Shown piece after piece: positions 28,398-60,790 of a stretch of 64,000 nt of DNA. The stretch's first letter is position 1; the number at the start of each line of letters is the position of its first letter. Source of the DNA: Escherichia phage BF17; sequence record MW822008.1. The stretch is one strand, 5' to 3'. The position numbers and the translations under genes were made by a program. A model generated the notes under the pieces. That model saw only the letters and a list, made by a program, of their open reading frames with translations. It ran no database searches and was not told the origin of the DNA.

Positions 28398-28406
28398 GTA
28401 TTTTAA

Positions 28407-29755: not shown

Positions 29756-29767
29756 GAAAAAAATATC

Positions 29768-30001: not shown

Positions 30002-30168
30002 AAGAAGTAATTGACTACAAATGTAAAAATTGTGGCAAAGATAAGGGTAAGCATTCAGTACAAGGGATGGCTTGCCCGAATCCAGGTCGTGGTAATTTCA
30101 GCGGGTTCAGTACTGAAAAGTCTTACGAACCGGATCATACCAAACCTGTAATGGGTTATAAATTATGA
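29998..30168 (+). CDS. small Cys-containing protein (56 aa, below the track cutoff)
   Basis: My own translation: MKEVIDYKCKNCGKDKGKHSVQGMACPNPGRG... ATGA overlaps at both ends. Confidence 0.5.
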   Translation: MKEVIDYKCKNCGKDKGKHSVQGMACPNPGRGNFSGFSTEKSYEPDHTKPVMGYKL

Positions 30169-30524
30169 GTGATTATGTAGCATTTCTTCATCGCTTTGGA
30201 GAAGCTAAAGAAAAACATATTATCCGTATGCCATTATATGGTGAAAAAGACTGGTACAAAAGTACTATAAGTGTAGGTGCATTTCGTGACCGTGAAGCTG
30301 GATTCTTTCTGGGTAAGCAACATGAACGAGAGGTACTTTGCTCACTGTGGCGTTTGGATGAATGGGATAGTGAGAACGTAAGAACTGCTGAATCAATGCT
30401 GGCTATTGTTGGTATTGCGAACTATCAGCACCCATATGACCTATTACCTACATTTGAACATGCTTCTTTGTTTGATTTTTACAAAGCAGTAGGGTATGAT
30501 TATAAAAAGAAACGTTACATTTAA
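30165..30524 (+). CDS. hypothetical protein
   Basis: ORF track. Followed by a terminator at 30529. Confidence 0.65.
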   Translation: MSDYVAFLHRFGEAKEKHIIRMPLYGEKDWYKSTISVGAFRDREAGFFLGKQHEREVLCSLWRLDEWDSENVRTAESMLAIVGIANYQHPYDLLPTFEHASLFDFYKAVGYDYKKKRYI

Positions 30525-30528
30525 TATC

Positions 30529-30556
30529 AGTACTACCACAGTGGGCAGTACTTTTT
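30529..30556 (+). terminator. intrinsic terminator built from two AGTACT copies
   Basis: AGTACT-A-CCA(CAG)TGG-GC-AGTACT followed by TTTTT. Confidence 0.55.
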
Positions 30557-30570
30557 AATTGGAGATTACT

Positions 30571-31185
30571 ATGACTACATCTGAAAAGTACTGGTGGATT
30601 TTGGCTCATCCTAAATTCATAAACAAAGATATGGTTCCAGCTAGGATTGATATAGAACCTCATGATGTGTGTCCAATGACAAATCGAATTGAAGATTTCA
30701 AAGCATTGAATACAAAGACTCAATTTTGGGTAGAATTTCTTTCACCAATGTATATTGAGCAAGACGACGAATGGGTACAAGCACATGATTATCAATTGGA
30801 TTGTGGTGGTGATACGTATGAAGAGGCGATTGATAAATTATACAAAAATGTGCTAAACACATATGGTGATTACACCCAACAAGAAGCAGATAACACATTT
30901 AATAAGATCCATGCATTCAAATCTACTCCATCAATTTTTAATCCTACTAAAACTGTTTGGGAGGAACGACACAGTTGGAGTTCATGTGTAATCGATGAAG
31001 AAACCAAAGAAAAAATCATCGATGATATAAAAAATTTAAAAAATACGATAGAAGCCTTGCGTGAATTCATAATGTCTTGTACAATAGAACAACAGAAAGA
31101 GGCAAAGATACATTTGGAGAGTGAAGAATGTAAACTTTGGGTTCTAGAGAAATCTATTGAAAAGGGTATAGACTTAGACTTATGA
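30571..31185 (+). CDS. hypothetical protein
   Basis: ATG at 30571 after GGAG. Confidence 0.65.
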   Translation: MTTSEKYWWILAHPKFINKDMVPARIDIEPHDVCPMTNRIEDFKALNTKTQFWVEFLSPMYIEQDDEWVQAHDYQLDCGGDTYEEAIDKLYKNVLNTYGDYTQQEADNTFNKIHAFKSTPSIFNPTKTVWEERHSWSSCVIDEETKEKIIDDIKNLKNTIEALREFIMSCTIEQQKEAKIHLESEECKLWVLEKSIEKGIDLDL

Positions 31186-31550
31186 ATAGTAAATTGGAGA
31201 AACTAATCGAAGAATTACGCCAGATGCCACCTATTGAACAAGTAGGAAATTACAAACGGTATCGTGTTATTGCTCGTGCACTTGATAAAAAAGGTAGAGT
31301 ACTGGCAACTCGCACAAATTCTTATACACAGACTCACCCAGTACAGAAGGGTTTCGCCATTCGTGCTGGGCGACCGCAAGGTGAGTTTCTTCATGCTGAA
31401 ATTTCATGTTTACTGGCTGCTCGTGCTGATGTTCATACTTTACTGATTGCACGGATAAGTAAAGATGGAATTCCTGTTCCGGCTAAACCATGTGAAATTT
31501 GCTCATTAGCAATAAAAGAATATGGGGTGAAAGAGATTATCCACACATGA
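31182..31550 (+). CDS. cytidine/deoxycytidylate-deaminase-fold zinc enzyme (second deaminase)
   Basis: Contains HAE (FLHAEISCL) and PCEIC zinc motifs. The protein is compact at 122 aa. Confidence 0.7.
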   Translation: MNSKLEKLIEELRQMPPIEQVGNYKRYRVIARALDKKGRVLATRTNSYTQTHPVQKGFAIRAGRPQGEFLHAEISCLLAARADVHTLLIARISKDGIPVPAKPCEICSLAIKEYGVKEIIHT

Positions 31551-31768
31551 AAATTGAAAGATATGCTAAGCATACTGTTGGGTGTGTAAATGATATATTC
31601 TATTATTATATTTTTGCACCTGAACTACGTTTTCAAATCACAACATACAATGATGGCAGATTTAAAGATACAAACTTCCTCATAACCGACTTAGCAAAGT
31701 ATGCGAATACAGAACATTTTAATCATTTAGTATTTGTGTACTGTATACCAAACCCAAATAAAAAGTAG
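31547..31768 (+). CDS. hypothetical small protein
   Basis: ATGA overlap at 31547. Confidence 0.55.
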   Translation: MKIERYAKHTVGCVNDIFYYYIFAPELRFQITTYNDGRFKDTNFLITDLAKYANTEHFNHLVFVYCIPNPNKK

Positions 31769-31778
31769 GAGATTAAAA

Positions 31779-32138
31779 ATGGCTAAAACAATTTCTTTAA
31801 AAAATGAAAATGTAGGACAACGCAAAGATGGTTTCTTTGGTTTTTCTTGGACAACATTATTCTTTGGACCGTTCCCTGCATTGTTTCGTGGTGACTTTAT
31901 TACGTTCATCGGTGCATTCGTAATTTACTTCATCCTCAACGCAGTGTCATTTTGGATTGTGGGTACAATTGCAATGGTTGTATGGGCATTTCTTTATAAT
32001 AAGTACTACACCGTGAATCTCATCAAGAATGGGTATAAATTCAATGGCACACATGAAGAAAATGCTGAAGCTGCAATGGCTTTGCAAATTGATTTGAATA
32101 AAAACAACACAGTTGATAAAAATAAAGATCCTGAATAA
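31779..32138 (+). CDS. membrane protein
   Basis: ATG after AGGAG. Two hydrophobic helices (FGFSWTTLFFGPFPALF; FIGAFVIYFILNAVSFWIVGTIAMVVWAFL). Confidence 0.65.
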   Translation: MAKTISLKNENVGQRKDGFFGFSWTTLFFGPFPALFRGDFITFIGAFVIYFILNAVSFWIVGTIAMVVWAFLYNKYYTVNLIKNGYKFNGTHEENAEAAMALQIDLNKNNTVDKNKDPE

Positions 32139-32357
32139 ATGGAAAAATACGATATAATTTACGATTATTATGGTAAGGCTTATATGAAGTGTGGGCGTTA
32201 TGTTGAACTCTCTAATAGAGAATCAATAGACCCCCACACTCTTATAACAATTCATAATTCGTACTATAAAAAAGTTACAATAGCTAATTTTGCAACATAC
32301 GTAAATAATCCTTTATTTCCTTACATTATTCAGTACTACTGTAGAGTTATCAAATAA
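32139..32357 (+). CDS. hypothetical small protein
   Basis: ORF track. Confidence 0.55.
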   Translation: MEKYDIIYDYYGKAYMKCGRYVELSNRESIDPHTLITIHNSYYKKVTIANFATYVNNPLFPYIIQYYCRVIK

Positions 32358-35805: not shown

Positions 35806-35809
35806 CATA

Positions 35810-35832
35810 AGCACCCGTTGGGTGCTTTTTTA
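35810..35832 (+). terminator. intrinsic terminator after nrdG
   Basis: AGCACCC-GTT-GGGTGCT followed by T6. Confidence 0.75.
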
Positions 35833-35881
35833 TTATGTATATAAATACATTAACTAATATCTAATTTATAAGGGATATATA

Positions 35882-39193: not shown

Positions 39194-41923
39194 ATGTCAT
39201 CAAAACGAATTATAGGAAGTGCCGAGATCCTTGGGAACTTGGCAATTGGACAAAGGTACGCTATGCGTACTTTTAATGGAACCTCACCGAATGCCAATAC
39301 TGGAATTGTTCAATATCCAATATATAAGCGTTCAGAAGTTCAAAGTATTTTAGATATGTTGCCTATATCACGTGTAGGAGAAATGGATTACTTACCATTA
39401 AACGTAAGTGGGTCGTATGAAGGTGCTACACCTATGTCAAGTGACCAAGTAGTTCAGCCAACAATTATTGAAGATGATGGAACCGCCGTTGTTCTGCGTA
39501 GCGGAACCAATGGTAGTACTAAAGGTTTTTATTATTCATTTATACGAGAACTCCGAAATATAACTATGATTTCACAAGAAAGTGTTATTTCAACCAATTC
39601 AATGTATAAACCTTCAATTATGAGTAGTACTGAAAATATTAAGTATTTTATTGGCTCTAATGGTTATGAGATGCTTGGATGTTTAAGTACTGAAGATAAT
39701 TATATTTTTACTATAACCAATGGCACATTTAACGAAATATCACATATTCATGCTAAAGTGCCAAGTACTTCTTTTGGTAATGATATGCCAATATATACAC
39801 ATATTGTTGGGACAAAGGTTTATATTTGGTGTAAAGATAAAAGTGTTTCTAATTTAGGATTAGCACTTTCAATTTATACAGTAGAGCTAAGTGATGTGAA
39901 AGCAAGCTCAATGGCATCATTAACAAAAGTTACTGGGTTATCAGGTCAAACTGTTCGAAACACAAGTTATTCTGCATCTAATAACATAAGAGTGTTCGAT
40001 AAATTATATAGTGTTGGTACTAGCTCGGATTCATTATTCGAAGTTACATCACCAGTATCACGTGTAGAATTTTCAGACTATACAGACTTTAACATTCAAG
40101 CCAACGTTAGTCCTGATTTATCAAAAATACGTGTAACTTTATATCCAACACATCGAATGGTTACACCTTTGTATATTTCAACAGTTTATGGTACTGGAAT
40201 AAGTTTTGTTTATAATATAAACTCAAAATCTATGTCACTAGATGGTAGTGCTCGTGCACCTGCAACTGTTTCATATAATAATGGATTTCAAGTTTCTAAC
40301 CCATTTGAAATTAATATGGTCAACTTCACAGGGACAACTGCTGCTGGTGTATTAGGAAACGCAGGTGGTTTATGTCAAACTAAAGATGGTTTGGTATTTG
40401 CATCTAAATTTAGATGGAGTTCAACTGAATTTTATGGTCTACAACGATATAAGGTTAGTGGTACACCGTTTGATTCATGGGTTGCCAGTACTAGAACCGC
40501 AAGTAACGTTATAAATGCAAACGTTTTACCAGTTTTTGGTAGTGCTGTTGGTGCAAACCTTTTAGGTGTACGTTTCATCGATAATAGAAAAATATTATTA
40601 GCATGTTCTGGTACGTATGATGATGTAACATATAATTATAATAATACTGTTTTTTCTGAAATAGGTTCACAACCAACATATCAATATAACTCAGTTCAAA
40701 ATAATACTACATTAAATGGTTTTGCACCACAATCTAATCGTAAACAAATAGGCGATGATTTTACATACACTGCTATGATTTCTCTTGTTGATACCGATGG
40801 TAGTGTTAGATGCTATGGAACATCATTCATTGAAGGTGTATATAAAACAAGTGGTGGATTATTAAACCCAGATACTTTAGAATTTGATGAAACATATACA
40901 ATAGAACCAACGGTATTAGAATCATTAAAACAAGATATTTTTGCTAATATAGGAAACTCTGGCATTGTTGGCACACTATCTGGACAAATTGTATTATATT
41001 ATGTACCTGATAATACTTTTTCTAAATCCATCGCAGTAGTTTCAGCATATAATCTTAACAATAACCAAGGTTATGCAATCTATGCCGAAGTTGATGTTGT
41101 ATTATCTGGAACTAACATAACTTCAGCTACATTGGTGAGTACTAGATATGAGACACTTAGTTCTGTTACAGGAATTATTACTGAAGCATATATGAAACGT
41201 TGTACTGGTCTAACAGTTGCAAAATATTCAGGATTTGGTTACATTGGTGTTGATGCTGTTCATCAATTTTCACAACCAGGTAATGCACAATTTAAGATGA
41301 TGATAGCTAAAACAGTAGATGGTGTCATAACATCAAATCGTTTTTTATCATCTAGTTACATCCAACTTGGTGCAGCATATCAACATGGTGTTATTCCTGG
41401 TGTTGGTTTTGGATATTACAATTTTCAAGATTCTGACTATCAAACCAAATCTGTATTCAGCGTTTTTGGTACAACATCTGCTGAAATGGATGGTTTAATT
41501 AGTGGAAATGGTAGCGTTAAAGAAAAGATTGTGGTAGTATCACAAGACGTTGCACAAGGATTCTCAGTGTACTTTACACGTGAAGTTCCGGTGTTTTTAG
41601 GTGGAATTTTCGACAGACTACCTATACAAAGTGTTGATTTAAGTACTGTAAAAAGTAACCCAGCTAATACTACGTTCTATTTGTATATACAAATGAACAG
41701 GAATACTAAGAAAGCGTCATATGTTATTAGTACTGAAACAATTGATGAATCTTTAACTAGCACTTACATTGGTAAGATAGTTACTGGAACTTCAGGAATA
41801 ACTTCAATTGATACAGAAAAAGTAACTCGTTTTTTGACATATCGTCCAAGTACAACGAAACGTGGTTCAGCGATACCTGCCAGTACTGGTGTACCATCAG
41901 GTCCAGGTACACGTTGGAAATAA
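39194..41923 (+). CDS. tail fibre protein (long paralog 2)
   Basis: ATG at 39194 after AAGGAAAAG. VVSQDVAQGFSVYFT...SNPANTTFYLY parallels 35882. Confidence 0.7.
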   Translation: MSSKRIIGSAEILGNLAIGQRYAMRTFNGTSPNANTGIVQYPIYKRSEVQSILDMLPISRVGEMDYLPLNVSGSYEGATPMSSDQVVQPTIIEDDGTAVVLRSGTNGSTKGFYYSFIRELRNITMISQESVISTNSMYKPSIMSSTENIKYFIGSNGYEMLGCLSTEDNYIFTITNGTFNEISHIHAKVPSTSFGNDMPIYTHIVGTKVYIWCKDKSVSNLGLALSIYTVELSDVKASSMASLTKVTGLSGQTVRNTSYSASNNIRVFDKLYSVGTSSDSLFEVTSPVSRVEFSDYTDFNIQANVSPDLSKIRVTLYPTHRMVTPLYISTVYGTGISFVYNINSKSMSLDGSARAPATVSYNNGFQVSNPFEINMVNFTGTTAAGVLGNAGGLCQTKDGLVFASKFRWSSTEFYGLQRYKVSGTPFDSWVASTRTASNVINANVLPVFGSAVGANLLGVRFIDNRKILLACSGTYDDVTYNYNNTVFSEIGSQPTYQYNSVQNNTTLNGFAPQSNRKQIGDDFTYTAMISLVDTDGSVRCYGTSFIEGVYKTSGGLLNPDTLEFDETYTIEPTVLESLKQDIFANIGNSGIVGTLSGQIVLYYVPDNTFSKSIAVVSAYNLNNNQGYAIYAEVDVVLSGTNITSATLVSTRYETLSSVTGIITEAYMKRCTGLTVAKYSGFGYIGVDAVHQFSQPGNAQFKMMIAKTVDGVITSNRFLSSSYIQLGAAYQHGVIPGVGFGYYNFQDSDYQTKSVFSVFGTTSAEMDGLISGNGSVKEKIVVVSQDVAQGFSVYFTREVPVFLGGIFDRLPIQSVDLSTVKSNPANTTFYLYIQMNRNTKKASYVISTETIDESLTSTYIGKIVTGTSGITSIDTEKVTRFLTYRPSTTKRGSAIPASTGVPSGPGTRWK

Positions 41924-41929
41924 ATTTAA

Positions 41930-41957
41930 AGCTCGTCTATTGACGGGCTTTTCTTTT
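41930..41957 (+). terminator. intrinsic terminator after the tail fibre genes
   Basis: AGCTCGTC-TATT-GACGGGCT followed by TTTCTTTT. Confidence 0.7.
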
Positions 41958-41968
41958 ATGTGTATAAT
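41940..41968 (+). promoter_or_regulatory. promoter: TTGACG-N17-TATAAT with a TG extension, with -35 inside the terminator hairpin
   Basis: TGTATAAT at 41961..41968. Gene start at 41991. Confidence 0.55.
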
Positions 41969-45224: not shown

Positions 45225-45233
45225 CATATACAA

Positions 45234-45262
45234 GTGTAATGGTACTAAAAATGCCATTACAC
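45234..45262 (+). other. 9-bp perfect hairpin between the nucleotidyltransferase gene and the next ORF (no U tract)
   Basis: GTGTAATGG-N11-CCATTACAC. Confidence 0.5.
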
Positions 45263-45301
45263 TCAATAAATACTCAATATAAATTAACACAAGGATTAAG
45301 T

Positions 45302-45430
45302 ATGGCACAACAAATTTTCACAGATATCCACACTACCGGAGTTATTAAATTTCAAAATAATTTTTCTGGTGCTACTGGTGTAGACATTAAAAATGATGGT
45401 TTTAACATTGTCAGTACTCGGATCTATTGA
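45302..45430 (+). CDS. short ORF, possibly the 5' part of a frame-split gene
   Basis: ATG after AAGGA. It stops after 42 codons. The downstream ORF overlaps it in the +1 frame and has no SD of its own. Confidence 0.4.
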   Translation: MAQQIFTDIHTTGVIKFQNNFSGATGVDIKNDGFNIVSTRIY

Positions 45431-45929
45431 TGGTGAAGATAGTTCTCTTAGTGATTCTGTGATTGCATCATTCGGAACTAATAAAAACAGTTCTTTTATT
45501 ATATCTGGATGGACTGGAATGACTGATTCTGAAAATAATGTTAAGATAAAAGCTAAAGCTACTAACGAGAATCATGAAACAGAATGGGTAACATTATATG
45601 ATAGTGCAAGTAATAAGTTATATAATGTATTAAGTTCTAATAATATTTTAATTAATCCACTGTCGGGCAATTCTGTTTTTAATATTAATTTATCTGATAG
45701 AAATACTACTATTTCGATTGGTGCGGCTCCTACTGAAGTTTATTCAATTACCATCCTATTAACACAACAAACAGGTTCAAACCTAGTTAATTGGGGTTCT
45801 AATGTTAAATGGTCATATAACAGACCAGTTGTTCTTTCTTATGAAATTGGTGAAAAAGATATTATTTCATTAGAAACATATGATAAAGGAGTTACATGGT
45901 ACGGTGCATTAATTAGAGCAGGAGTATGA
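45393..45929 (+). CDS. hypothetical (structural-like) protein, possibly continuous with 45302 through a frame change
   Basis: ORF track. No obvious RBS before ATG 45393. Confidence 0.5.
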   Translation: MMVLTLSVLGSIDGEDSSLSDSVIASFGTNKNSSFIISGWTGMTDSENNVKIKAKATNENHETEWVTLYDSASNKLYNVLSSNNILINPLSGNSVFNINLSDRNTTISIGAAPTEVYSITILLTQQTGSNLVNWGSNVKWSYNRPVVLSYEIGEKDIISLETYDKGVTWYGALIRAGV

Positions 45930-45930
45930 T

Positions 45931-48720
45931 ATGTTAAACAATAATATTGATAATATTGTACAACTTCTTTATGGGCATCACAAATTTATTGAAAGAAATA
46001 CTGGTGATACAATAGACCCAACAGTACAACATTATGTGGTGAATAATCAGGGTGTTTTGGCGAACAACCGTCATTTTATTAACTATTCTGCAATGGAAGG
46101 TCAACCAAACGGTGACGGGACAACAGAAGGTCAAAGTCTATTAATTTTAGGATACATTTATGCGTATCTGGCAACAAATGATCCAATGTTTTTAGATAAG
46201 GCAAAGTGGTACTGGGACGCATATCATCAGTACTTTTATGCTGGACGTGAATTACCAGATCCACCTACACCACTACAATGTAACTGGATAGTTAATGCCA
46301 AAGAACCTATATTGGCTAACTGGCCTTTAGCTGATGATGGCTGGCCCACACATGGTGGTTTCAAGGGAGTAGAATTTACATTTACTAATGGTCAATGTAA
46401 AATACCACATGGTGCACCATATTATGGTCAGTTCTTGGATAAAGTGACATTTGCATTCAAAGGTGCGTTAGCATGGAACCAAATAAATGCTTCAGTAAAA
46501 GCATTATTACCAGATGGTAGTGTTGATTGGGATACACCAGGTGAACAATATGATGTTGACTGGATTATCGATTTCATGGGTAGAAAAATCGACTGGGATG
46601 GTAATATTTTAGAAGAAGGTTTTGACGAATCTGAAAAAGGAACTGTTCAATTAAAGAATACAACAATTAATGGTGTATATAAATTAAATTTTGCAAATCG
46701 TCAACCAGTAGAATATGGTGGTGTGATAATTCAACGAAATGAAATGCAACACAACCGCCCTCTTCATGTTCCAATTGATTTGGAATTTGCTGATAACGCA
46801 TCAGATGCAGAATTATGGTTTAGTGATGCTTCTTATTTGTTATATAAAATAACAAAAGAAAGAAAACATTATTTGGGTTGGAAATGTTCACTACTAACGT
46901 GTTATGCTTATGGTGATATTGACTCCAGAGATAAATTTTTCAGACAAAGTACAATTGTAACCACACCATTCACTGATGGTATTTCCTATGAATATTTTTA
47001 TCCTAGTGATGCTATTGCTAAGTTTGGTAGAAATTCTCTAGGATATATTACTATCAGGCAAGACCAAAGTGCACAAAGTACTATGGAACAACAAGCTATT
47101 TGGTTCAGGGTCAATGCTGATTCTAAATTACTTGTAGACTATGGTGGTGTATGTGATGATGGTAAGCCGTTATCATTTAAACCAGTACTGGAATTGTCAA
47201 AAACAAAAAATGACCATGATGTTGTTCGTTATCGTTGTGGCTTACCGGAAAGTAAAGACCAAAATATCACACATTCATTAACACCTTTAAGTGCATTTGT
47301 TAGAGAAAAGAAAGCAGATGGTTCCCCTTATATAATTGCTGATAGTAGAATTGTTGTTCCTTATGGTGCAGCTACGTCCGAAATGATATATAGTACTGAT
47401 ATATTAGTTACACGCCGCGATACCATTAATCAGTTAGTTTGTGGTGAAGATGATGGTGCTGTTATTGGATTTTGGCTATTAGCAACAAATAAGTCTGAAG
47501 TTAAATCTTTTACCTATCGTTCATATGAAGATGATTACAATATAAGAATTGTAGATGATAATGGTTGGAGATGGTGGTGGATGATTCCTGCAACACACGG
47601 GGAATGGACTACAATCACACTAAGTTCCGATACATTACGTTTATCTGGGTATCAGCCAAATCATCCAAGTTCTGACCCAAGACCAGATGCACCAGTTTAT
47701 AGTGAACTAGAAGATATTACTATTTTACCTGATACAACCCCAGTAGATGGTGTTGCTGCAATAATTGATTGGTATTGTATTAATGACATTCCAGAATTAT
47801 ACACGGATGCTGACGGTGATGACTATACTATGACATTTTCAATAACAATTGCAGGTGAATCACCATATACTGCACAGTTAGGGGATTGTGTAATCAAGGA
47901 TTATTTGTTAAACTCATTGCATTACACACCAGGAACAATACCATTTTCTAACATCACTGACCCGTATGCGAACCAGTATTCAGGATGGCGTGGTTTACCG
48001 TATCCAGGTTATCAATATCCTGTGATATATTGTTTTAAAGACCAGCCAGTAGATAACACACGCTTAGGAAACATGTTAAGCTTTATGAAAGATTCCCAAA
48101 CATGGTTTACTCAACAATTCGGTACTGTTGGTCCGTGTGCACAAGCATATGTTTGGAACCGCTGGGATAACTTAAAATATGGTGAACCAGATACATTTAC
48201 TATGCTACATTGGGGTGATCAAGCATGGAGTGGGTATGAACCACGTGCGTTCTTTGGGGCTGCCAGAGCATGGCAAGAACTCGCAGAGAGAGGAATTGAA
48301 CCACCAGCAGATCTTGTTGAATTTTGTGAGAATTGGATTCACTTTTTAATTCAATTTCAAAAAGATAATGATGGTCGTTCACCAACAATCTTCAATAAAG
48401 ATGGCACAGTTGAAGGTCCAGATTGGGACTTTACAGGTCATATGTGTGGGTTGTGGTTAGCTGGGGCTTGTGCTGCTGGATTGGCTGGATGTAAAATAGA
48501 AGGTCTAACAACACTCGCTGATAACTTAGTTCTCGAACTTCAAAAGAATTATGTTATTGTAAATCCAGGTTCACCAATGAATGGTTCATGGAGTCCAGCA
48601 GTTAGAGAAGGTACTGATAATGGTATGTTTTTTGGTTTCTGGGCAGGTGAGATTATGCGTGGATTGGGATTATACTCAATGTACCGCTTAAACACACCAA
48701 ATCGTTTCCGTGATTTATAA
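45931..48720 (+). CDS. large (929 aa) protein in the tail-gene block; function unknown, possibly tail-associated or carbohydrate-active
   Basis: Long Trp/Tyr/Gly-rich ORF directly after fibre-like genes. No motif I can name. Confidence 0.6.
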   Translation: MLNNNIDNIVQLLYGHHKFIERNTGDTIDPTVQHYVVNNQGVLANNRHFINYSAMEGQPNGDGTTEGQSLLILGYIYAYLATNDPMFLDKAKWYWDAYHQYFYAGRELPDPPTPLQCNWIVNAKEPILANWPLADDGWPTHGGFKGVEFTFTNGQCKIPHGAPYYGQFLDKVTFAFKGALAWNQINASVKALLPDGSVDWDTPGEQYDVDWIIDFMGRKIDWDGNILEEGFDESEKGTVQLKNTTINGVYKLNFANRQPVEYGGVIIQRNEMQHNRPLHVPIDLEFADNASDAELWFSDASYLLYKITKERKHYLGWKCSLLTCYAYGDIDSRDKFFRQSTIVTTPFTDGISYEYFYPSDAIAKFGRNSLGYITIRQDQSAQSTMEQQAIWFRVNADSKLLVDYGGVCDDGKPLSFKPVLELSKTKNDHDVVRYRCGLPESKDQNITHSLTPLSAFVREKKADGSPYIIADSRIVVPYGAATSEMIYSTDILVTRRDTINQLVCGEDDGAVIGFWLLATNKSEVKSFTYRSYEDDYNIRIVDDNGWRWWWMIPATHGEWTTITLSSDTLRLSGYQPNHPSSDPRPDAPVYSELEDITILPDTTPVDGVAAIIDWYCINDIPELYTDADGDDYTMTFSITIAGESPYTAQLGDCVIKDYLLNSLHYTPGTIPFSNITDPYANQYSGWRGLPYPGYQYPVIYCFKDQPVDNTRLGNMLSFMKDSQTWFTQQFGTVGPCAQAYVWNRWDNLKYGEPDTFTMLHWGDQAWSGYEPRAFFGAARAWQELAERGIEPPADLVEFCENWIHFLIQFQKDNDGRSPTIFNKDGTVEGPDWDFTGHMCGLWLAGACAAGLAGCKIEGLTTLADNLVLELQKNYVIVNPGSPMNGSWSPAVREGTDNGMFFGFWAGEIMRGLGLYSMYRLNTPNRFRDL

Positions 48721-48721
48721 C

Positions 48722-48750
48722 TTGACATAGAAAAAGTAATTATGTATAAT
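48722..48750 (+). promoter_or_regulatory. promoter: TTGACA-N17-TATAAT with a TG extension
   Basis: Consensus hexamers. Predicted start near 48757 lies inside the 5' arm of the terminator at 48752..48782. Confidence 0.65.
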
Positions 48751-48751
48751 C

Positions 48752-48782
48752 AGAGAACTTCATATGGAGTTCTCTTTTTTTT
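48752..48782 (+). terminator. intrinsic terminator
   Basis: AGAGAACT-N8-AGTTCTCT followed by T8. Confidence 0.75.
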
Positions 48783-48795
48783 ATAAGGTGATAAA

Positions 48796-49215
48796 ATGTT
48801 AAATGAACGTATTAAAAATGCACTACATGTATTGAACCAAGAAGTCAATTCTATTCATAAAAGTACTGACCGTTATAAAGTAATGCATGAAATCAAACAA
48901 GAATTGGAATCTATTAATAAGGGAGAGTGGTGGTATCTTCAGCCCGAATATCAAACTCGTGAATTAAACGATGTTGAAAAAGAAATTGTCAAATTCATCA
49001 CTACTCGTTATTGTGATACATCAGAGAATGATGTATCAGCGAACTTCAATCTTACTAAATTGGAAGTCGAAGAAAAATTCCATTTTGATTGGCTTGATTG
49101 GATTGAAATGGTAATGGAACTAGAAGAAAAATTCAATGTTGAAGTTGATGAAAAGTTCGAGAATAATGAAACTAAGCTGTATGAACTAGTAGAACATATT
49201 CAAAAAATGTTGTAA
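48796..49215 (+). CDS. acyl-carrier-protein-like protein lacking the phosphopantetheine serine
   Basis: The C-terminal 75 aa align position by position with E. coli ACP. FHFDWLDWIEMVMELEEKFNVEV matches [23 protein letters not shown]. The DSL serine is Trp (TGG at 49090..49092). Confidence 0.65.
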   Translation: MLNERIKNALHVLNQEVNSIHKSTDRYKVMHEIKQELESINKGEWWYLQPEYQTRELNDVEKEIVKFITTRYCDTSENDVSANFNLTKLEVEEKFHFDWLDWIEMVMELEEKFNVEVDEKFENNETKLYELVEHIQKML

Positions 49216-49218
49216 AAC

Positions 49219-49232
49219 TATACAATTGTATA
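49219..49232. promoter_or_regulatory. perfect 14-bp palindrome TATACAATTGTATA upstream of the spanin genes
   Basis: Self-complementary. Overlaps the extended -10-like TGTATACT at 49227..49234. Confidence 0.35.
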
Positions 49233-49268
49233 CTCTAAATAATATCATCAACTATAGGAGATATTATT

Positions 49269-49643
49269 ATGAGTATGTTAGAAATAATTGTTTCAAAAAT
49301 TCTTATTCCATTTTGGAAACCAATTTCTTTTGTATTATTAATTGGCGGTTCAGCTTATGCTGGTTGGGAAGCTAATACTTATTACAGTGGATATCAACAA
49401 AGCATAGAGCAACAAATAGCTAAAAAAGTTGATACCGCCTTGGATAAAATGCAACAAGAAAATGCAAAAAATTACCTTGAAACTAAAAAAATCATGGAAG
49501 ATAATGCTAAAGTTATTGAAACAAAGGTTCCTTTTATTGTAGAACGTGAAGTTTATAAGAATGTATGTTTAGATGAAGATGGTGTAAAAGTACTGAATGA
49601 ACTAAAACAAAATTCTCAAGCAGCGAGGAATAAATTCAAATGA
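49269..49643 (+). CDS. i-spanin (Rz-like)
   Basis: N-terminal TM helix followed by a charged helical periplasmic part. Overlaps the downstream lipoprotein gene through ATGA. Confidence 0.6.
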   Translation: MSMLEIIVSKILIPFWKPISFVLLIGGSAYAGWEANTYYSGYQQSIEQQIAKKVDTALDKMQQENAKNYLETKKIMEDNAKVIETKVPFIVEREVYKNVCLDEDGVKVLNELKQNSQAARNKFK

Positions 49644-49948
49644 AAAAATTATTAGTTCCAATGATTTCTTTTTTAATTATAAGTGGGTGTGCCGAGCAAG
49701 TAAAACTACAATCCCCCGCACCAATTAAACAAGAAATTCTGTTAGAAAGATGTGATGATGATACACCTCTACCACAAAAAATTATGATTGACAAAAATGG
49801 TTTTAAAGGTTATGATGGTGCAGAAATTCTTAAAGTACTTACTCGTTGGGATGCAGTCTACAATGAATGTGCTTTAAAACACGACGCATTGATTAAAACT
49901 ATTCGTGATTTACAAGGTAAAGATATTAAAATCAATATCAAGGAATAA
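49640..49948 (+). CDS. o-spanin (outer-membrane lipoprotein)
   Basis: Signal plus lipobox MKKLLVPMISFLIISGC. Confidence 0.6.
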   Translation: MKKLLVPMISFLIISGCAEQVKLQSPAPIKQEILLERCDDDTPLPQKIMIDKNGFKGYDGAEILKVLTRWDAVYNECALKHDALIKTIRDLQGKDIKINIKE

Positions 49949-49949
49949 A

Positions 49950-50561
49950 ATGAACAAATATCATGTTTACTATACGACAAAATTATCACTTCTTGAAGAA
50001 TTAAATCAACGAAGTACTAAGATGAAACGCTACACTTTAAATGGTATTACTTTTCGATATTTCCCACAAAAAGTTCTTACTTTTGTTAAGAATCCAAAAT
50101 GCGTGGCATGTGGGATTGAAGCTACTGAAGTACGCATTGAACGTTCATTATGTTCTGATCCAGTATATGGTAAACCACATTTAAATGTATATGCTGTATG
50201 TGGTCTTTATGAAGTTTTAATGACAGTTGACCATAATCATCTGGCATCTAAGGGTGGACCTGATTTAGAGTCAAACTTTAATACTATGTGCTCCAGATGT
50301 AATCAACTACGTTCGAATAAAACTGAAACAGTTGATGAGTTTCTTGAGAAAGTTAAAGGTCGTAATCTTCTCCAAGAACATATGAATAATTTCTTTAATG
50401 TACAAAAAAAGAAAAATAACATTGACAAGTCGAAACTACTAGAAGAACGTAGGTTACGTCAAGAATTATGGGAAACCGATCATCTATGGCATGTTCGAGA
50501 GTTTGGTCGTCATATGAAAGCTTTGAAAAAAGAACAGAAGAAATTGAATAAACATGATTGA
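49950..50561 (+). CDS. free-standing HNH endonuclease
   Basis: Contains VDHNHLASKGGPDLESNFNTMCSRCNQLRSNK (HNH with Cys pairs). ATG at 49950 follows AAGGA. Confidence 0.75.
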   Translation: MNKYHVYYTTKLSLLEELNQRSTKMKRYTLNGITFRYFPQKVLTFVKNPKCVACGIEATEVRIERSLCSDPVYGKPHLNVYAVCGLYEVLMTVDHNHLASKGGPDLESNFNTMCSRCNQLRSNKTETVDEFLEKVKGRNLLQEHMNNFFNVQKKKNNIDKSKLLEERRLRQELWETDHLWHVREFGRHMKALKKEQKKLNKHD

Positions 50562-50572
50562 TATGATATTAT
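50544..50572 (+). promoter_or_regulatory. promoter: TTGAAT-N17-TATTAT with a TG extension
   Basis: Predicted start near 50579 lies inside the 5' arm of the terminator at 50574..50602. Confidence 0.55.
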
Positions 50573-50573
50573 A

Positions 50574-50602
50574 GGGACTTGAGTATTCAAGTCCTTTTTT
50601 TT
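50574..50602 (+). terminator. intrinsic terminator after the HNH gene
   Basis: GGACTTGA-GTAT-TCAAGTCC followed by T8. Confidence 0.75.
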
Positions 50603-50613
50603 GGAGAAAATAA

Positions 50614-50970
50614 ATGAAATCTAAAATCTTTTTACCACAATTAATGTGGCATCTAGCAGAGTTAGATGAAAATGATGAATATACTGACTATGGTGCATGG
50701 GATGACAGTACTGAAACTTTTAAACCAGATGTAAAATATAAAATCATCTGCAATGAAAGCAAAGGGCACAGAAGGTGGACTGAAGAATTTGATCTCGTAT
50801 TTCTTGACATGAGCACAAATAAGTTTTATCATTGTACTTATGAACGAGGTTTAACAGAAGATAGACCAGTACAACCATTCAGTACTGAAACTGATGGTGT
50901 TAAGTGCAATGAAGTTTCTGTTACCAGAGAAGAAATTATCACTTATCGAACTTTGTGGAAATATTTGTAA
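50614..50970 (+). CDS. hypothetical protein
   Basis: GGAG upstream. Promoter/terminator element at 50544..50602. Confidence 0.6.
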   Translation: MKSKIFLPQLMWHLAELDENDEYTDYGAWDDSTETFKPDVKYKIICNESKGHRRWTEEFDLVFLDMSTNKFYHCTYERGLTEDRPVQPFSTETDGVKCNEVSVTREEIITYRTLWKYL

Positions 50971-50971
50971 A

Positions 50972-51370
50972 ATGCTTAAAGAATTAGATTTTTCAAACTT
51001 AGAAATTATCAGTGCTGTAAAAAACATTTCCGATATGGGAGATGAGAAAGCAGTTCTTGTTACTATTACTTTTGTAAAAGAAAAAGATAGCTATAGCCAT
51101 TTAACTGGCATTGAAGAACTAATTCATAAAACCAATCTTGAGAATGATGGTAAACTCATCAAGCTTCAGGCTTCCTATACGCAAAAAACGTCAAATTTTA
51201 TAGACCTAAATAATGTAGTCAAGGTGGTATACAATCATCCTGAACACACATATAGGAACACGACAAGAAATGAAAATGTTGCTAACGATTCGAATATTAT
51301 CGAAGATGTTGAATTCATAAACACAATTTTTGATCGTTGTTCTAAGGATTTAAAAAAAGTATACATGTAA
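50972..51370 (+). CDS. hypothetical protein
   Basis: ATG at 50972, immediately after the upstream stop. Confidence 0.55.
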   Translation: MLKELDFSNLEIISAVKNISDMGDEKAVLVTITFVKEKDSYSHLTGIEELIHKTNLENDGKLIKLQASYTQKTSNFIDLNNVVKVVYNHPEHTYRNTTRNENVANDSNIIEDVEFINTIFDRCSKDLKKVYM

Positions 51371-51399
51371 TGGGACATTATATGTTCCAATGATATAAT
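51371..51399 (+). promoter_or_regulatory. promoter: TGGGAC-N17-TATAAT with a TG extension, driving the noncoding locus
   Basis: TGGGACATTATATGTTCCAATGATATAAT is nearly the same as the element at 26149. Confidence 0.6.
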
Positions 51400-51677
51400 G
51401 TATATAGAAAATGACAACGGACATTGAAAAATGGACACTGAGAACCTACTTCTCTTGAAAATGTAAAGGATAGATGAGCTTTACCGTTGTAGCGAACAGC
51501 AGAAGAAACCTGTTAGAGTACTGGCATTCAAACAAACACGATGTAAGACCACGAATCACGGCGACACGGCTGTATAAAGAACTCCGATAAGCATACAGAG
51601 AGTTCCTAGATAGATGTATAAGGTTCGCACCTTACCAGATTTGCTAAGGGAGTTCAAGAATAGCGGACGCAATTTTT

Positions 51678-51706
51678 ACAAGAAAGTTGCGTCCAAAATT
51701 TGAGAA
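51678..51706 (+). repeat. internal repeat module A of the noncoding locus
   Basis: ACAAGAAAG-TTGC-GTCCAAAATTTGAGAA. Matches 27 of 29 positions of 51830..51858. Confidence 0.85.
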
Positions 51707-51829
51707 CAAGTACTACTTTGATCGAATAGAGTTAGTACTGAGTGCTGTTGATGAAAAGACCAGCGACCGTTGCATATGACTGCGATAGAGAGAAACCGAG
51801 CAACCCGCTTTCGCTCTCTAAATTTTGGT

Positions 51830-51858
51830 ACAAGAAAGATCCGTCCAAAATTTGAGAA
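51830..51858 (+). repeat. internal repeat module B of the noncoding locus
   Basis: ACAAGAAAG-ATCC-GTCCAAAATTTGAGAA. Confidence 0.85.
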
Positions 51859-51894
51859 ATTCGCAATTCGATAATATCCGATGCCATCATCGTC

Positions 51895-51920
51895 AAGAGA
51901 GACTTAATTGTCTCTTTTTT
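51895..51920 (+). terminator. intrinsic terminator closing the noncoding locus
   Basis: AAGAGAGAC-TTAATT-GTCTCTTTT with a T run to 51920. Confidence 0.65.
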
Positions 51921-52060
51921 ATTACCTTCATTCCCCTGCGGGGGGATGTAATAGTCCTCAACAAATCCCGTCAAGTTTTTAAAGTACATTATCATTTTCA
52001 GAAGGAACTAGTTTACGAAGTAAACGCAGTGACTTCTTGAGTTACGAGAGAACGAAGTGA

Positions 52061-53010: not shown

Positions 53011-53628
53011 ATGAAATCGCATGAGTTAGCAAAATTACTACTATCTCAACCAAATCTAGAAATTTATCATTATGATGCAGAGAGTGACTTGCATTATCAG
53101 AATTTTGATAATAGATTAATGGTTACACCATCTGGTATTTTCACAACGGTAAAACCTACATCAGTTTCTGAAAATGTACTTACACCATACGAAACCCCCC
53201 TCTTGGGTCATGTGCAAATTTTCTTTAAGGATGGTACTATTACTCCAAAATTGGAGGGTTCACATATTCAAACTGTTCTTAGCTTAGAATATGGGTTGGT
53301 ATTTAACATTCCTTATGAAAAGCCAATTGTTTTATTAGGTAAAAATAAATCAACACAATTCTCTAATCAACATGCTGTTTGTTATACATCTGATGATATT
53401 GATTTCATTTCAGTACTGACAGAATATGATCCTAATACTTGGCATGAAACATGGGAAAATATGTCATATGATGAAGCAATTGAATGTGGTAAAAATTTAG
53501 CCAAAATGTTATTTCCACCGAAAAAAGAACTTTCACAAGAACAAAATGAATCATTTTCTAAAGATTTTCCTGATTCTGAATTCAATGTTAAAGTATCACC
53601 TTCTATGATTGATAAAATTGAAAAATAA
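53011..53628 (+). CDS. hypothetical protein, paralog of 54364
   Basis: MKSHELAKLLLSQPNLEIYHY parallels MKAKDLAALLLQNPEMEVYHE. ATG follows GGAG. Confidence 0.65.
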   Translation: MKSHELAKLLLSQPNLEIYHYDAESDLHYQNFDNRLMVTPSGIFTTVKPTSVSENVLTPYETPLLGHVQIFFKDGTITPKLEGSHIQTVLSLEYGLVFNIPYEKPIVLLGKNKSTQFSNQHAVCYTSDDIDFISVLTEYDPNTWHETWENMSYDEAIECGKNLAKMLFPPKKELSQEQNESFSKDFPDSEFNVKVSPSMIDKIEK

Positions 53629-55734: not shown

Positions 55735-56062
55735 AGGACAAACTCAATATAAGTGTATTGAAGAAATCAGAAAGAAAGATGGAACACTTTTTGACAGGAA
55801 ATTAAAACAAGAATATAAAGACCTAAGAGATGTTATCCGAAATGAAAGTTTCGGTGGGAAGCGTAGGCAGAAGATTTATGAATTTCTGAAGAATGGTGTA
55901 GAAATTCAAGTCAATGGTCTTCATTGTGTACAAACCAAAAACGATCCAGATATTTTACGTCTTTTAAAAGAGGGTAAAATAGAAATGTTCAATATCCCAA
56001 TTTCATCCTATGGTAATAGATTAAAATGTAAGCACACGTACTTAAGGATTAAAAATGGGTAA
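55724..56062 (+). CDS. hypothetical basic protein
   Basis: ORF track. Confidence 0.55.
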   Translation: MALRGQTQYKCIEEIRKKDGTLFDRKLKQEYKDLRDVIRNESFGGKRRQKIYEFLKNGVEIQVNGLHCVQTKNDPDILRLLKEGKIEMFNIPISSYGNRLKCKHTYLRIKNG

Positions 56063-56639
56063 ATTAGTATATTACTATGGTAGTATGTCTAGTGGTAAAA
56101 GTACTCATCTTTTACAAAAAGCATATAACCATAAGAAAAATGGAATGAAGGTAATTTACTTAACCAGTGCACTTGATGATCGTTATGGAACAGGAAAGAT
56201 TACTTCAAGAATTGGCATCGAAGCTGTGGCTGAAGTAATTCCAAAAAATGACATTAGTGTTCTTCTTAAAGTTAAAGAAACACTCAAAAATGACGTTGAC
56301 ATTAACAGTATCTATGTTGATGAATGTCAATTTTTAAACAGAGAACAGATTGACCATTTAGCTGATATAGCAGATAATTATGGTGTTGATGTTTCCTGTT
56401 ATGGAATACGAACAGATTTTGAATCCAATCTATTTGAAGGTTCACAAAGACTGTTCGAAATAGCTGATGACATACATGAACTTAAGAACGTGTGTGAGAA
56501 TCAGAAGTGTGGCAAAGAAGCCACGATGAATGCCCGTATAGTTGAAAGTACTGATAAAGTCTTTATTGGTGGTGATGAATCATACAAGAGTCTATGCAGA
56601 ACTTGCTATATGGATTATATGAGGAATAAAAATGGTTGA
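56055..56639 (+). CDS. tdk: thymidine kinase
   Basis: P-loop GSMSSGKST, Walker B YVDECQF, and C-terminal Cys pairs (CENQKC ... CRTC). Confidence 0.88.
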   Translation: MGKLVYYYGSMSSGKSTHLLQKAYNHKKNGMKVIYLTSALDDRYGTGKITSRIGIEAVAEVIPKNDISVLLKVKETLKNDVDINSIYVDECQFLNREQIDHLADIADNYGVDVSCYGIRTDFESNLFEGSQRLFEIADDIHELKNVCENQKCGKEATMNARIVESTDKVFIGGDESYKSLCRTCYMDYMRNKNG

Positions 56640-58929: not shown

Positions 58930-59044
58930 CTTAAATGTTCCAAAGAACAACTGAGTACTGTAGAAAGTCCAATGAGGCTTTTGCAAATGGCCTCTTTGCC
59001 CTCTTTGTGATTGCTCATTGTTAACAACCAACAAAGGAGGCGTT

Positions 59045-59971
59045 TTGAAAAAAGCGAAAAAAGCACTGAAAACTAAAATTGCCATAGGCGTGTTAGTTTC
59101 ATCAGCCCTATTCGCTGCGATTGGATTTTATGGTTTTTCTCAAAGTGATCGTGCATCATCATTAGACGAAAGTCAGGTGCATAATTTAAAACCACAAGTT
59201 ACGCAAATTCAAAAGCAGGAACTACCACAGGTATCAGTACCAAAAGCAGTTCCAAGCAGCGAGAAACATTATACGGTTCAACCTGGAGATAGTTATTATT
59301 CTATTGCACAGAAATTTAAACCTAAAAATGTACAGATTGAAGATTATGTCATTTTGTTGAAGAACATCAACTTAAATGCAACTCTTCATACTTCTCAGGG
59401 TATCTTTATCCCAACAAAAGAGGATTTGAAGAACGTATTGTTACCAGATGTGACTGTACTGTTTGATTATAAAGATCCAGAAATTGTCAATCACATCAAA
59501 GAAGCTGAAGGTTCTATTGAATTTCAGTCCAAGAACAAACGACGTTTACTTGGTGGGAAAGTTGGAGTTCCTTTCCACAATTCTAAATTTCATCCCTATA
59601 AGGACATGAAAGGTAATTATACAATTGGTTATGGGCATTATTTGGGTAAGAAAGATTCTGATGCAATGAAGTACAGAAACGGGATTACCAAAGCACAGGC
59701 CAACAAACTTTTAATGCAAGATATGAAAAGGACTTACGAGGACTTTACACTATTGATGCAGAAGAAAGATGCAGTTAATCTGACAAAAGAACAGCAGCGT
59801 ATCCTGTTTGAAATGTCATACACAATGGGCGTTGATAAGTTGGCAACATTTAACAAACTATGGAAAAGTGTTAAAATGGATAACCCTAAGAAATTCAAGA
59901 AAGAAATCATGAATTCCTTGTGGTATCGCCAAGTTACAAACAGAGCGGATTTGTTGTTAAGCTCACTCTAA
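59045..59971 (+). CDS. endolysin with N-terminal signal-anchor, LysM and GH24 (T4-lysozyme-like) domains
   Basis: TTG at 59045 is 4 nt after AAGGAGG. TM helix IAIGVLVSSALFAAIGFYGF. LysM HYTVQPGDSYYSIAQKF. Catalytic KEAEG and YKDMKGNYTIGYGH. Confidence 0.8.
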   Translation: MKKAKKALKTKIAIGVLVSSALFAAIGFYGFSQSDRASSLDESQVHNLKPQVTQIQKQELPQVSVPKAVPSSEKHYTVQPGDSYYSIAQKFKPKNVQIEDYVILLKNINLNATLHTSQGIFIPTKEDLKNVLLPDVTVLFDYKDPEIVNHIKEAEGSIEFQSKNKRRLLGGKVGVPFHNSKFHPYKDMKGNYTIGYGHYLGKKDSDAMKYRNGITKAQANKLLMQDMKRTYEDFTLLMQKKDAVNLTKEQQRILFEMSYTMGVDKLATFNKLWKSVKMDNPKKFKKEIMNSLWYRQVTNRADLLLSSL

Positions 59972-59986: not shown

Positions 59987-60319
59987 ATGCTAAATCTAGT
60001 TATCCAAGGTAATGTTGATATTACTCCAGCAATCAATGACGCAATTCATGCTGAAGCAAATGCACTAACGAAGTTTAGTGATTCTTCAGTACTGCATATT
60101 GGTGTTCATGTGAAGAAAGAGCATAAGAATCAATATTTCGTAACTTTAACATCAGGCGGTAAGAGTGTTACAGCCGATGATGCAGATTTATACAAAGCAA
60201 TTGGTGATTCATTTGAAAAAATGGAAACTGTCTTAGGTAAAGACAAAAGCATCAAATTGTATCGCCGTAACCACCCCGAACATCCAGTTCAAGAAGACTT
60301 GACTGAAGACGAAGAGTAA
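59987..60319 (+). CDS. hpf: ribosome hibernation promoting factor / RaiA family
   Basis: MLNLVIQGNVDITPAINDAIHAE...LYKAIGDSFEKME aligns with E. coli HPF (MQLNITGNNVEITEALREFV...MYAAIDGLIDKL). Confidence 0.8.
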   Translation: MLNLVIQGNVDITPAINDAIHAEANALTKFSDSSVLHIGVHVKKEHKNQYFVTLTSGGKSVTADDADLYKAIGDSFEKMETVLGKDKSIKLYRRNHPEHPVQEDLTEDEE

Positions 60320-60327
60320 GATATAAT
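60299..60327 (+). promoter_or_regulatory. promoter: TTGACT-N17-TATAAT, overlapping the hpf stop
   Basis: Predicted start near 60334 lies inside the 5' arm of the terminator at 60331..60358. Confidence 0.55.
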
Positions 60328-60330
60328 AAA

Positions 60331-60358
60331 GGGACAGAGATTATTCTGTCCCTTTTCT
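60331..60358 (+). terminator. intrinsic terminator after hpf
   Basis: GGGACAGA-GATTAT-TCTGTCCC followed by TTTTCTT. Confidence 0.7.
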
Positions 60359-60373
60359 TATGGAGTTTTAATT

Positions 60374-60790
60374 ATGAATTATGTTTGGGCAGATGTAGTA
60401 AAATCTCTCGTATCAACACATGATGTTGATTTACCAGATAGTCTGGTATTTAACAGATGGTACTATCCAAACCCAGAGGACTGTAACGTTGGAATTGGAT
60501 TTTTTATTAATGATAAATCTAATTTGTTTGGATTAATTGAAGATGAGACAAAATCCAACCTTATATTCTCGATTGAGTTGAATGCTGATCACATAAAATA
60601 CTACACCAATAAAATGGACGAAGACGATGGAGATGTTATAATCCCAGCAGAAATAGACGAAGCTTCATTTTTTCAGTTATCATTGATTTATGATCTATCT
60701 AACATTACTTATGATAATGTGAAAGACCTTTTTATATTGTACAATAAAATGTATAATTACTTTTTAAGACCTTTTTATATTGTACAATAA
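60374..60790 (+). CDS. hypothetical protein; C-terminus altered by a 43-bp tandem duplication
   Basis: GGAG upstream. The last 7 codons (RPFYIVQ) come from the second repeat copy read out of frame. Confidence 0.6.
   Translation: MNYVWADVVKSLVSTHDVDLPDSLVFNRWYYPNPEDCNVGIGFFINDKSNLFGLIEDETKSNLIFSIELNADHIKYYTNKMDEDDGDVIIPAEIDEASFFQLSLIYDLSNITYDNVKDLFILYNKMYNYFLRPFYIVQ

Follow-up and report, generated by a model that had tools for sequence, protein, structure and literature searches.

Phage, window and relatives

Between positions 48718 and 48798 of the DNA analysed here, a stretch of 64,000 nucleotides from Escherichia phage BF17 (MW822008.1) that is referred to below as the window, a tail-fibre gene is separated from a gene encoding a 139-aa protein with a weak acyl-carrier-like match by a sigma-70-type promoter sequence, a hairpin with a T run and a ribosome binding site. 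This region (S1) shares its plan with two others further downstream (S2 and S3), and in a fourth region (S4) comparable elements are arranged in a partly different order.

Nucleotide comparison of positions 47000-52000 gave 99.8% identity to phAPEC6 and 97-99.6% identity to G17, PBECO4 and 121Q, all four being Asteriusvirus jumbo myoviruses of ~350 kb each. Judged by its sequence, the source of the window is a jumbo coliphage of the genus Asteriusvirus (121Q/phAPEC6 group). It has a G+C content of 33.6%, ARAGORN found no tRNA in it, and an Rfam search of the window matched no family. The phages of this group encode their own RpoD-family sigma factor (gp066c in phAPEC6), which could be an alternative to the host holoenzyme at the regions described here.

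For the analysis of conservation, the orthologous intergenic regions of G17, EC22.5-2, A4, TH47, Turkey5, fEgEco12, vB_Ec-M-J, ph0011 and Ecwhy_1 were used. Scans of IMG/VR with the proteins flanking S2 and S3 returned phage 121Q alone and did not extend this diversity. Mosaicism was seen elsewhere in the window. The protein encoded directly after S3 (60374-60787) is 98% identical to its homologs in vB_Ec-M-J, WPEC5 and EC.P1 and 79% identical to those in phAPEC6 and 121Q, and the gene at 56055-56639, a thymidine kinase according to the annotation of the relatives, is missing from EC22.5-2.

Organization of S1, S2 and S3

An initial annotation had proposed promoter/terminator composites at 48722..48782, 50544..50602, 60299..60358 and 41930..41968, and both reading of the sequence and consensus scans confirmed the elements at all four sites. 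S1, S2 and S3 follow a common plan, in which the -10 of a sigma-70-type promoter ends 0-2 nt before a 10-bp hairpin that is followed by a T tract and a ribosome binding site.

S1 is located on the + strand, as are the other three sites. The TAA stop codon of the tail-fibre gene (48718-20) is separated by 1 nt from the promoter (48722..48750), which consists of the -35 TTGACA (48722-27), a 17-nt spacer and the -10 TATAAT (48745-50), a full 12/12 matches. By eye, the 20 nt preceding the -35 do not appear more AT-rich than the 66% AT genome. The hairpin and T run cover 48752..48782, with arms at 48752-61 and 48766-75 (AGAGAACTTC-ATAT-GGAGTTCTCT) and the T run extending to 48782. The ribosome binding site AAGGTGA (48785-91) and the ATG (48796) of the next gene follow within 48785..48798.

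The S2 promoter (50544..50572) has the -35 TTGAAT (50544-49), a 17-nt spacer, a TG at 50564-65 and the -10 TATTAT (50567-72), and its spacer contains the stop codon of an HNH endonuclease gene. The hairpin and T run (50573..50602) comprise arms at 50573-82 and 50587-96, the loop GTAT and a T8 run at 50595-50602, directly followed by GGAG (50603-06) and an ATG (50614). The S3 promoter (60299..60327) has the -35 TTGACT (60299-304), a 17-nt spacer and the -10 TATAAT (60322-27), with 11/12 matches, and its spacer contains the stop codon of a gene encoding a protein resembling ribosome hibernation factors. The hairpin and T tract of S3 (60328..60359) are built from the core GGGACAGA (60331-38) and TCTGTCCC (60345-52), an AAA/TTT extension (60328-55) and TTTTCTT, and GGAG (60362-65) and an ATG (60374) complete the region. 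The gene preceding S3 (59987-60316) matches Pfam Ribosomal_S30AE (E = 3e-10) and adjoins a LysM-lysozyme gene (59018-59968).

All three cassettes thus sit between the stop codon of one gene and the Shine-Dalgarno sequence and ATG of a co-oriented one. According to the initial annotation, the upstream stop precedes a good sigma-70-type promoter at each site. The first part of this description applies to S1, whereas the stops at S2 (TGA, 50559-61) and S3 (TAA, 60317-19) lie inside the promoter spacer, with the upstream ORF reaching across the -35 and into the spacer. The second part applies to S1 and S3; the S2 promoter, with 9/12 matches plus an extended -10 (TGa-TATTAT), is at chance level if judged by score alone. 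The space between hairpin and ribosome binding site has no room for another promoter at any of the three sites.

The hairpins of S1-S3 have the sequence properties of intrinsic terminators, taken here as a G+C-containing stem of at least 5 bp, a loop of 3-8 nt and at least 5 T in the next 8 nt, and are therefore predicted terminators; the same hairpins are annotated as ARNold terminators in phage G17. When the three cassettes were aligned with each other, 26 of 78 columns were invariant, mostly at functional letters, so that the architecture is common and little of the sequence is shared. The stem sequences differ among S1-S3, and the idea of the palindromes as a shared operator was rejected on this ground.

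S4 and related sites with the -35 inside the hairpin

At S4 (41928..41968) the order of the elements is partly reversed, as the initial annotation had noted, since the hairpin (41928-51) contains the -35. The latter, TTGACG (41940-45), occupies the loop and the 3' arm, and the T tract (41949-57) forms the spacer. The downstream part consists of the -10 TATAAT (41963-68), a predicted +1 at ~41975, the ribosome binding site AGGAGG (41980-85) and an ATG at 41991. The folding energy of the hairpin is -16.6 kcal/mol, with z -8.6. One stem pair, C-G here, is T-A in A4, a compensatory change that has also improved the -35 to TTGACA. Among these close relatives, covariation in the stems is thin, with this one clear compensatory pair, and it yields no covariance model.

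Cassettes with the -35 inside the hairpin (AAGGGTTGACTTCGGTCAGCCCTTTTTGTTATAAT) occur as near-identical repeats in the early region of this phage group. In positions 1-50000 of phAPEC6, the stretches noted at 18685-32242 (minus strand), 40704-41669 and 1150-14220 concern this repeated cassette, the RpoD-family sigma factor and a family of RCC1-repeat genes, each of which has the hairpin GCCAGTAC...GTACTGGC and then a conserved TTAAATATAGTATAAT behind it.

Conservation of the cassettes and of their spacing

The distance between the -10 and the stem is invariant or nearly so in the 4-7 distinct sequences available per site. Measured to the stem core, it is 2, 2, 2 and 0 nt in the sequences compared at S1; at S2 six sequences have 2 nt and one has 1 nt, and at S3 it is 3 nt in six out of six. 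The -10 itself varies at positions 3-5 only, where constraint is weak. At S1 it reads TATAAT, TATAGT or TAAACT in the sequences compared; the -35 TTGACA is invariant, being kept in A4, Turkey5 and ph0011, and the stem GAGAACTTC...GGTTCTC is conserved. The -10 of S2 is TATTAT, TATAAT or TATGAT, with position 4 alone varying, and the TGn motif is found in 6/7 tabulated sequences, the exception being Turkey5. That of S3 is TATAAT or TATACT in all relatives and is always located 3 nt before GGGACAG.

The spacer of S1 (16-18 nt) is unrelated between the window, A4 and Turkey5. Furthermore, S1 is retained in Turkey5 although the downstream protein is only 37% identical. Hexamers and hairpins that are kept around a diverged spacer are the footprint that would be expected of working promoters held in register with the hairpins.

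S1 forms the 3' end of a module (45231..48795, + strand) in which a small ORF and two tail-fibre genes precede the cassette, and which is inserted into an operon that is contiguous apart from it. fEgEco12, vB_Ec-M-J, TH47 and Ecwhy_1 lack this block as a whole, with only 10 nt separating the nucleotidyltransferase gene from the post-S1 gene, and in EC22.5-2 and ph0011 the fibre genes have been lost and S1 has been kept. A stop-and-restart element would be expected at the 3' end of an inserted module, and the position of S1 thus fits the idea that it insulates and restarts transcription.

The tail-fibre module was observed in three states among the relatives. Near 140645-140654 of EC22.5-2 the genes corresponding to 45316-48692 of the window are deleted, apparently between 10-nt microhomologies. 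At the left end of the module, GTGTAATGG...CCATTACAC forms an inverted repeat of 9 bp and TATAAATT resembles a late promoter.

Frequency of coupled promoters and terminators

Promoters and terminators were counted in EC22.5-2, a complete close relative of 351,992 bp that is unannotated. Promoters were scored by their matches out of 12, with +1 for TGn; the terminator set consisted of 144 terminator-like hairpins with dG <= -7. Sites with score 12 numbered 51 versus 2.3 expected from Markov simulations and those with score 11 numbered 113 versus 44, and scores 9-10 were at chance level.

Using promoters with a score of at least 10, the layout of S1-S3, defined as a -10 ending 0-4 nt before the hairpin (class A), was found at 8 terminators versus 0.58 expected (Poisson P = 1.3e-8, computed on 9 promoter matches at the 8 terminators). 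Promoters with the -35 inside the hairpin (class B, the arrangement of S4) were found at 13 terminators versus 1.75 expected and promoters just after the T tract (class D) at 12 versus 2.9. As a control, promoters with a -10 ending 5-40 nt before the hairpin, from which the full terminator would be transcribed, were counted in the same genome, giving 0 versus 4.2 expected (P = 0.015). The window alone contains three sites of the S1-S3 type versus 0.04 expected (P ~1e-5). The juxtaposition of promoter and terminator in these cassettes is not a product of chance.

A coupled promoter is present at 34/144 of the EC22.5-2 terminators, or approximately a quarter. The layout of S1-S3 is the rarer variant, with ~4 clean class A cases per 352-kb genome, namely S1, S2, S3 and a site at 322397 in EC22.5-2 that corresponds to the phAPEC6 census site L003(-) 1577. 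The other hits with a gap of 0-4 nt would leave a stable residual hairpin (-11.3 at 237335 and -7.0 at 144921 in EC22.5-2) or have a poor -35, and on these grounds 237335, 210436(-) and 12477(-) of EC22.5-2 were not accepted as clean class A. A promoter-centred classification of neighbouring hairpins was dropped, as it proved over-sensitive to A-T extensions of the stems.

A hairpin at 52973-89 of the window, preceded by TTTACA-17-TAAACT, was likewise rejected as a clean class A case, the gap being several nt (4 nt between -10 and hairpin in EC22.5-2/vB_Ec-M-J) and -6 to -7 kcal/mol being left in the RNA. The possible nested promoter seems to be too far from the stem for escape. This hairpin and its T tract border a gene for a 205-aa protein (53011-53628) that is absent in vB_Ec-M-J, A4, Turkey5 and TH47, where the next gene comes directly after the equivalent hairpin.

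In a Klebsiella RaK2-like genome class B was abundant and some class A cases were present, exemplified by TTGACA-18-TGtTATAAT located 1 nt before AAGGGACTTTAAGAGTCCCTT. The same genome contains a few good promoters followed by complete terminators, and the exclusion zone seen in EC22.5-2 is therefore not universal.

These counts bear on a simpler reading, that S1-S3 are plain terminators, with hexamers that are vestigial or non-functional look-alikes in AT-rich DNA and with downstream genes that are expressed by read-through or from distant promoters. S2 falls in the range of 9-10/12 matches that is reached at chance frequency in a 34% GC genome; S2 and S3 have their -35 and spacer within coding sequence, where conservation could be partly protein-driven, and A4 has a -35 degraded to ATGTAA at S3 and a -10 degraded to TAAACT at S1. 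We consider this reading improbable, as scores such as the 12/12 of S1 and the 11/12 of S3 are 20-fold and 2.5-fold over the genome-wide expectation, promoters are strongly enriched exactly 0-4 nt before terminators, and the hexamers of S1 are conserved on either side of a non-coding spacer that has diverged. Furthermore, low read-through would be expected with 8-T tracts and stems of -13 kcal/mol. For S2, a plain terminator is a possible explanation.

Predicted transcripts and proposed mode of action

The sigma-70 holoenzyme starts transcription 6-9 nt after the -10, most often at position 7. The 5' arm of the S1-S3 hairpins begins 1-4 nt after the -10, and consequently no plausible start includes the whole arm; a start anywhere in this range of 6-9 nt shortens it by 4-8 nt. 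In agreement with the initial annotation, which had placed the +1 within the 5' arm, position 7 falls inside the arm at all three sites, the predicted +1 being A48757 at S1 and A60334 at S3. As position 7 of S2 is a T (T50579), the start there may shift to one of the nearby purines A50577, G50581 and A50582.

The complete hairpins have folding energies of -13.0 kcal/mol at S1 (z -3.9 vs shuffles), -13.0 kcal/mol at S2 (z -3.7 vs shuffles) and -17.6 kcal/mol at S3 (z -5.2 vs shuffles). RNAs that begin at 48757, 50579 and 60334 fold at -2.6, -0.6 and -3.5 kcal/mol, respectively, so that 4-5 bp are left and the range of -13 to -17.6 kcal/mol of the full hairpin is reduced to -0.6 to -3.5 kcal/mol. 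The corresponding RNAs fold at -0.4 to -3.9 kcal/mol in every relative. At S3 a start one base earlier (G, +6) leaves a 6-bp helix with -7.1 kcal/mol, and an RNA starting there might still terminate in part.

S1-S3 are probably composite promoter/terminator cassettes of a T4-related jumbo phage, which stop incoming transcription, restart it and allow the new transcript to escape. A polymerase arriving from the upstream gene would transcribe the whole inverted repeat, which would fold into a hairpin of 10 bp with a U tract behind it and cause termination. Within the same 60 bp lies a sigma-70-type promoter, the -10 of which ends 0-2 nt before the 5' arm, and which may be used by the host holoenzyme or by one containing the RpoD-like sigma factor of the phage. 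Initiation ~7 nt after the -10, inside the arm, would yield an RNA with loop, 3' arm and U tract in which the 3' arm has no partner to pair with; such transcripts should therefore not terminate. Polymerase would then continue through a U-rich leader of 35-40 nt and the ribosome binding site into the next gene. The net effect would be to uncouple downstream expression from upstream transcription, for example that of the post-S1 genes from that of the late tail-fibre genes, at a cost of ~75 bp and with a promoter that may overlap the end of the upstream ORF. In the related jumbo phage PA5oct the host RNA polymerase is used, and TTGAC/TATAATA promoters are found at starts seen by RNA-seq.

The initial annotation had suggested precisely such a fate for the two kinds of transcript, and geometry, conservation and folding energies agree with it, with a reservation for S3, where the helix left after a +6 start weakens the predicted escape. 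Its description of the sites as an insulator plus restart is half right. The placement of S1 at the 3' end of the tail-fibre module speaks for it; the promoter is located upstream of the terminator, however, and hence is run over by incoming polymerases from which nothing shields it.

This arrangement raises the possibility that the coupling itself is functional, either through polymerase interference, in which incoming complexes are blocked or dislodged or the promoter is occluded by late transcription, or as a portable joint for the exchange of modules. With the -10 abutting the hairpin, the cassette might then act as a transcriptional valve: incoming late polymerases would occlude the promoter and stop right behind it, and a promoter-bound polymerase would lie over the hairpin DNA and block those coming in. 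Downstream genes would in that case switch from being expressed from their own early promoter only to being off as upstream late transcription rises, and whole modules could enter an operon without rewiring. We regard this as an improbable extension. Coupled promoters in bacteria raise termination efficiency in a proximity-dependent manner, according to a 2026 preprint (bioRxiv 10.64898/2026.08.19.745784), and an open complex at S1-S3 would be expected to cover the hairpin DNA; the interference data published there, on the other hand, come from the reverse arrangement, in which transcription terminates ~10 bp before the start. Likewise, S1 ends an indel module, the hairpin at 52973-89 borders another indel gene, and the related elements of T4-like phages described below are located at indel junctions (PMC2839356; PMC4122927), whereas no junction was found at S2 or S3 in the comparisons made, and with 26/78 invariant columns recombination between S1, S2 and S3 is unlikely. 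A role for the coupling is compatible with the stop, restart and escape proposed here, to which it would add and which it would not replace, and it is partly supported for S1.

That the hairpin instead acts on the transcripts of its own promoter, as a promoter-proximal attenuator giving short RNAs and regulated read-through or as a 5' stabilising structure, is very improbable, even though 42 5' UTR terminators just downstream of promoters have been mapped in Pseudomonas phages (PMC10914365) and the Klebsiella relative has some promoters that precede complete terminators, since transcription of the whole stem needs a start 0-3 nt after the -10, outside the range of 6-9 nt, and the truncated RNAs fold so weakly. 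With a 5' UTR terminator, transcription starts before the entire hairpin; at S1-S3 the 5' arm begins upstream of any plausible start.

Comparison with known composite elements

Promoter-early stem-loop (PeSL) cassettes have been described in the T4-like phages RB49/phi1, T4/PST and KVP40/nt-1 (Arbiol et al. 2010, PMC2839356; Comeau et al. 2014, PMC4122927). According to these two papers, PeSLs are intergenic composites of a sigma-70 promoter and a stem-loop that are proposed to stop and restart transcription, and five sub-layouts are distinguished by the position of the stem-loop, one of them being "downstream of the -10". For PeSLs of RB49/phi1, the papers report promoter and terminator activity in lacZ fusions and propose a role in modular shuffling.

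S1-S3 resemble PeSLs in having near-consensus sigma-70 -35 and -10 hexamers, a spacer of ~17 nt and a stable stem-loop that abuts the promoter, all between a stop codon and a Shine-Dalgarno sequence. They belong to the known PeSL-type kind of composite element, in its least documented sub-layout. The class B cassettes (AAGGGTTGACTTCGGTCAGCCCTTTTTGTTATAAT) have essentially the same design as the nt-1 PeSL AAAAAGGGTTGACAGATGTCAGCCCTTTTTTGTATCAT. Of the other traits of PeSLs, many sequence-similar copies per genome, as found for class B, are not a feature of S1-S3. The picture for indel junctions is mixed, with one at S1 and one next to the 52973-89 hairpin and none at S2 or S3 in the comparisons made. 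An AT-rich tract before the -35, a further trait of PeSLs, is not apparent by eye at S1.

There are also clear differences. S1-S3 are located in an Asteriusvirus jumbo phage, whereas PeSLs were described in Straboviridae. In the hyperplastic region of RB49 the stem-loops have no T tracts and are located in the spacer or across the -10, whereas those of S1-S3 are canonical predicted terminators that span the predicted +1; no stem-loop starting after the -10 was found in the RB49 and nt-1 regions sampled. Escape from termination by a start inside the 5' arm is not mentioned in the searched passages of the PeSL papers or of the bacterial preprint, and the term 'start site' does not occur in the 2010 paper (PMC2839356).

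Promoter-coupled terminators of bacteria (Fletcher ... Grainger, bioRxiv 10.64898/2026.08.19.745784) are the second relevant comparison. As described in that preprint, in which phages are not treated, the termination site lies within 35 bp upstream of a start on the same strand, the start is ~10 bp after the termination site, the -35 lies in the DNA of the stem-loop and the T tract comes just before the -10. S1-S3 have in common with them that the same DNA would serve termination and initiation between tandem genes. S4 and class B fit the motif as it is described there, S4 as a prediction, whereas S1-S3 do not, their predicted start lying inside the stem, ~25-28 nt upstream of the termination point. 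Finally, the 5' UTR terminators mapped in Pseudomonas phages by ONT-cappable-seq (PMC10914365) are also found no more than a few tens of nt downstream of a phage promoter, but these are transcribed whole, giving short RNAs, whereas the 5' arm of S1-S3 is predicted to be missing from the RNA.

Our search of the literature found no description of such cassettes in this phage group. S1-S3 and S4 would extend composite promoter/terminator cassettes from Straboviridae to jumbo phages of the 350-kb Rak2/121Q type, which is a neat confirmation of the concept rather than a surprise. They also isolate a testable sub-layout, with the promoter first and the terminator second, in which the position of the start alone would save the transcript. 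When these genomes are annotated, a terminator should be checked for a nested promoter before it is taken as the end of an operon. The units of ~75 bp are, moreover, candidate stop-and-restart parts for engineering in E. coli.

Other features of the window

The stretch 51371-52060 is poor in ORFs and contains a promoter sequence, GGGACA-16-TGaTATAAT (51372-99), and a terminator hairpin (51896-51917). For the ~520 nt between them the folding energy is -130.7 kcal/mol (z -4.0), the stretch gave no Rfam match even at E <= 1, and three diverged copies of it (69-74% identity) are present elsewhere in the EC22.5-2 genome. It is a candidate for a family of structured non-coding RNAs.

The T4 late-promoter consensus TATAAATA is depleted in the window, with 2 matches versus 12.8 expected. 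The + strand copy (35840-47) is located directly after a terminator hairpin (35809-27) and before the next gene, and 35809-35847 may be a terminator coupled to a late promoter. At 20320-20345, where gene orientation changes, a symmetric hairpin (AAAAAGGAGCC-loop-GGCTCCTTTTT) with a T tract on either strand resembles a bidirectional terminator.
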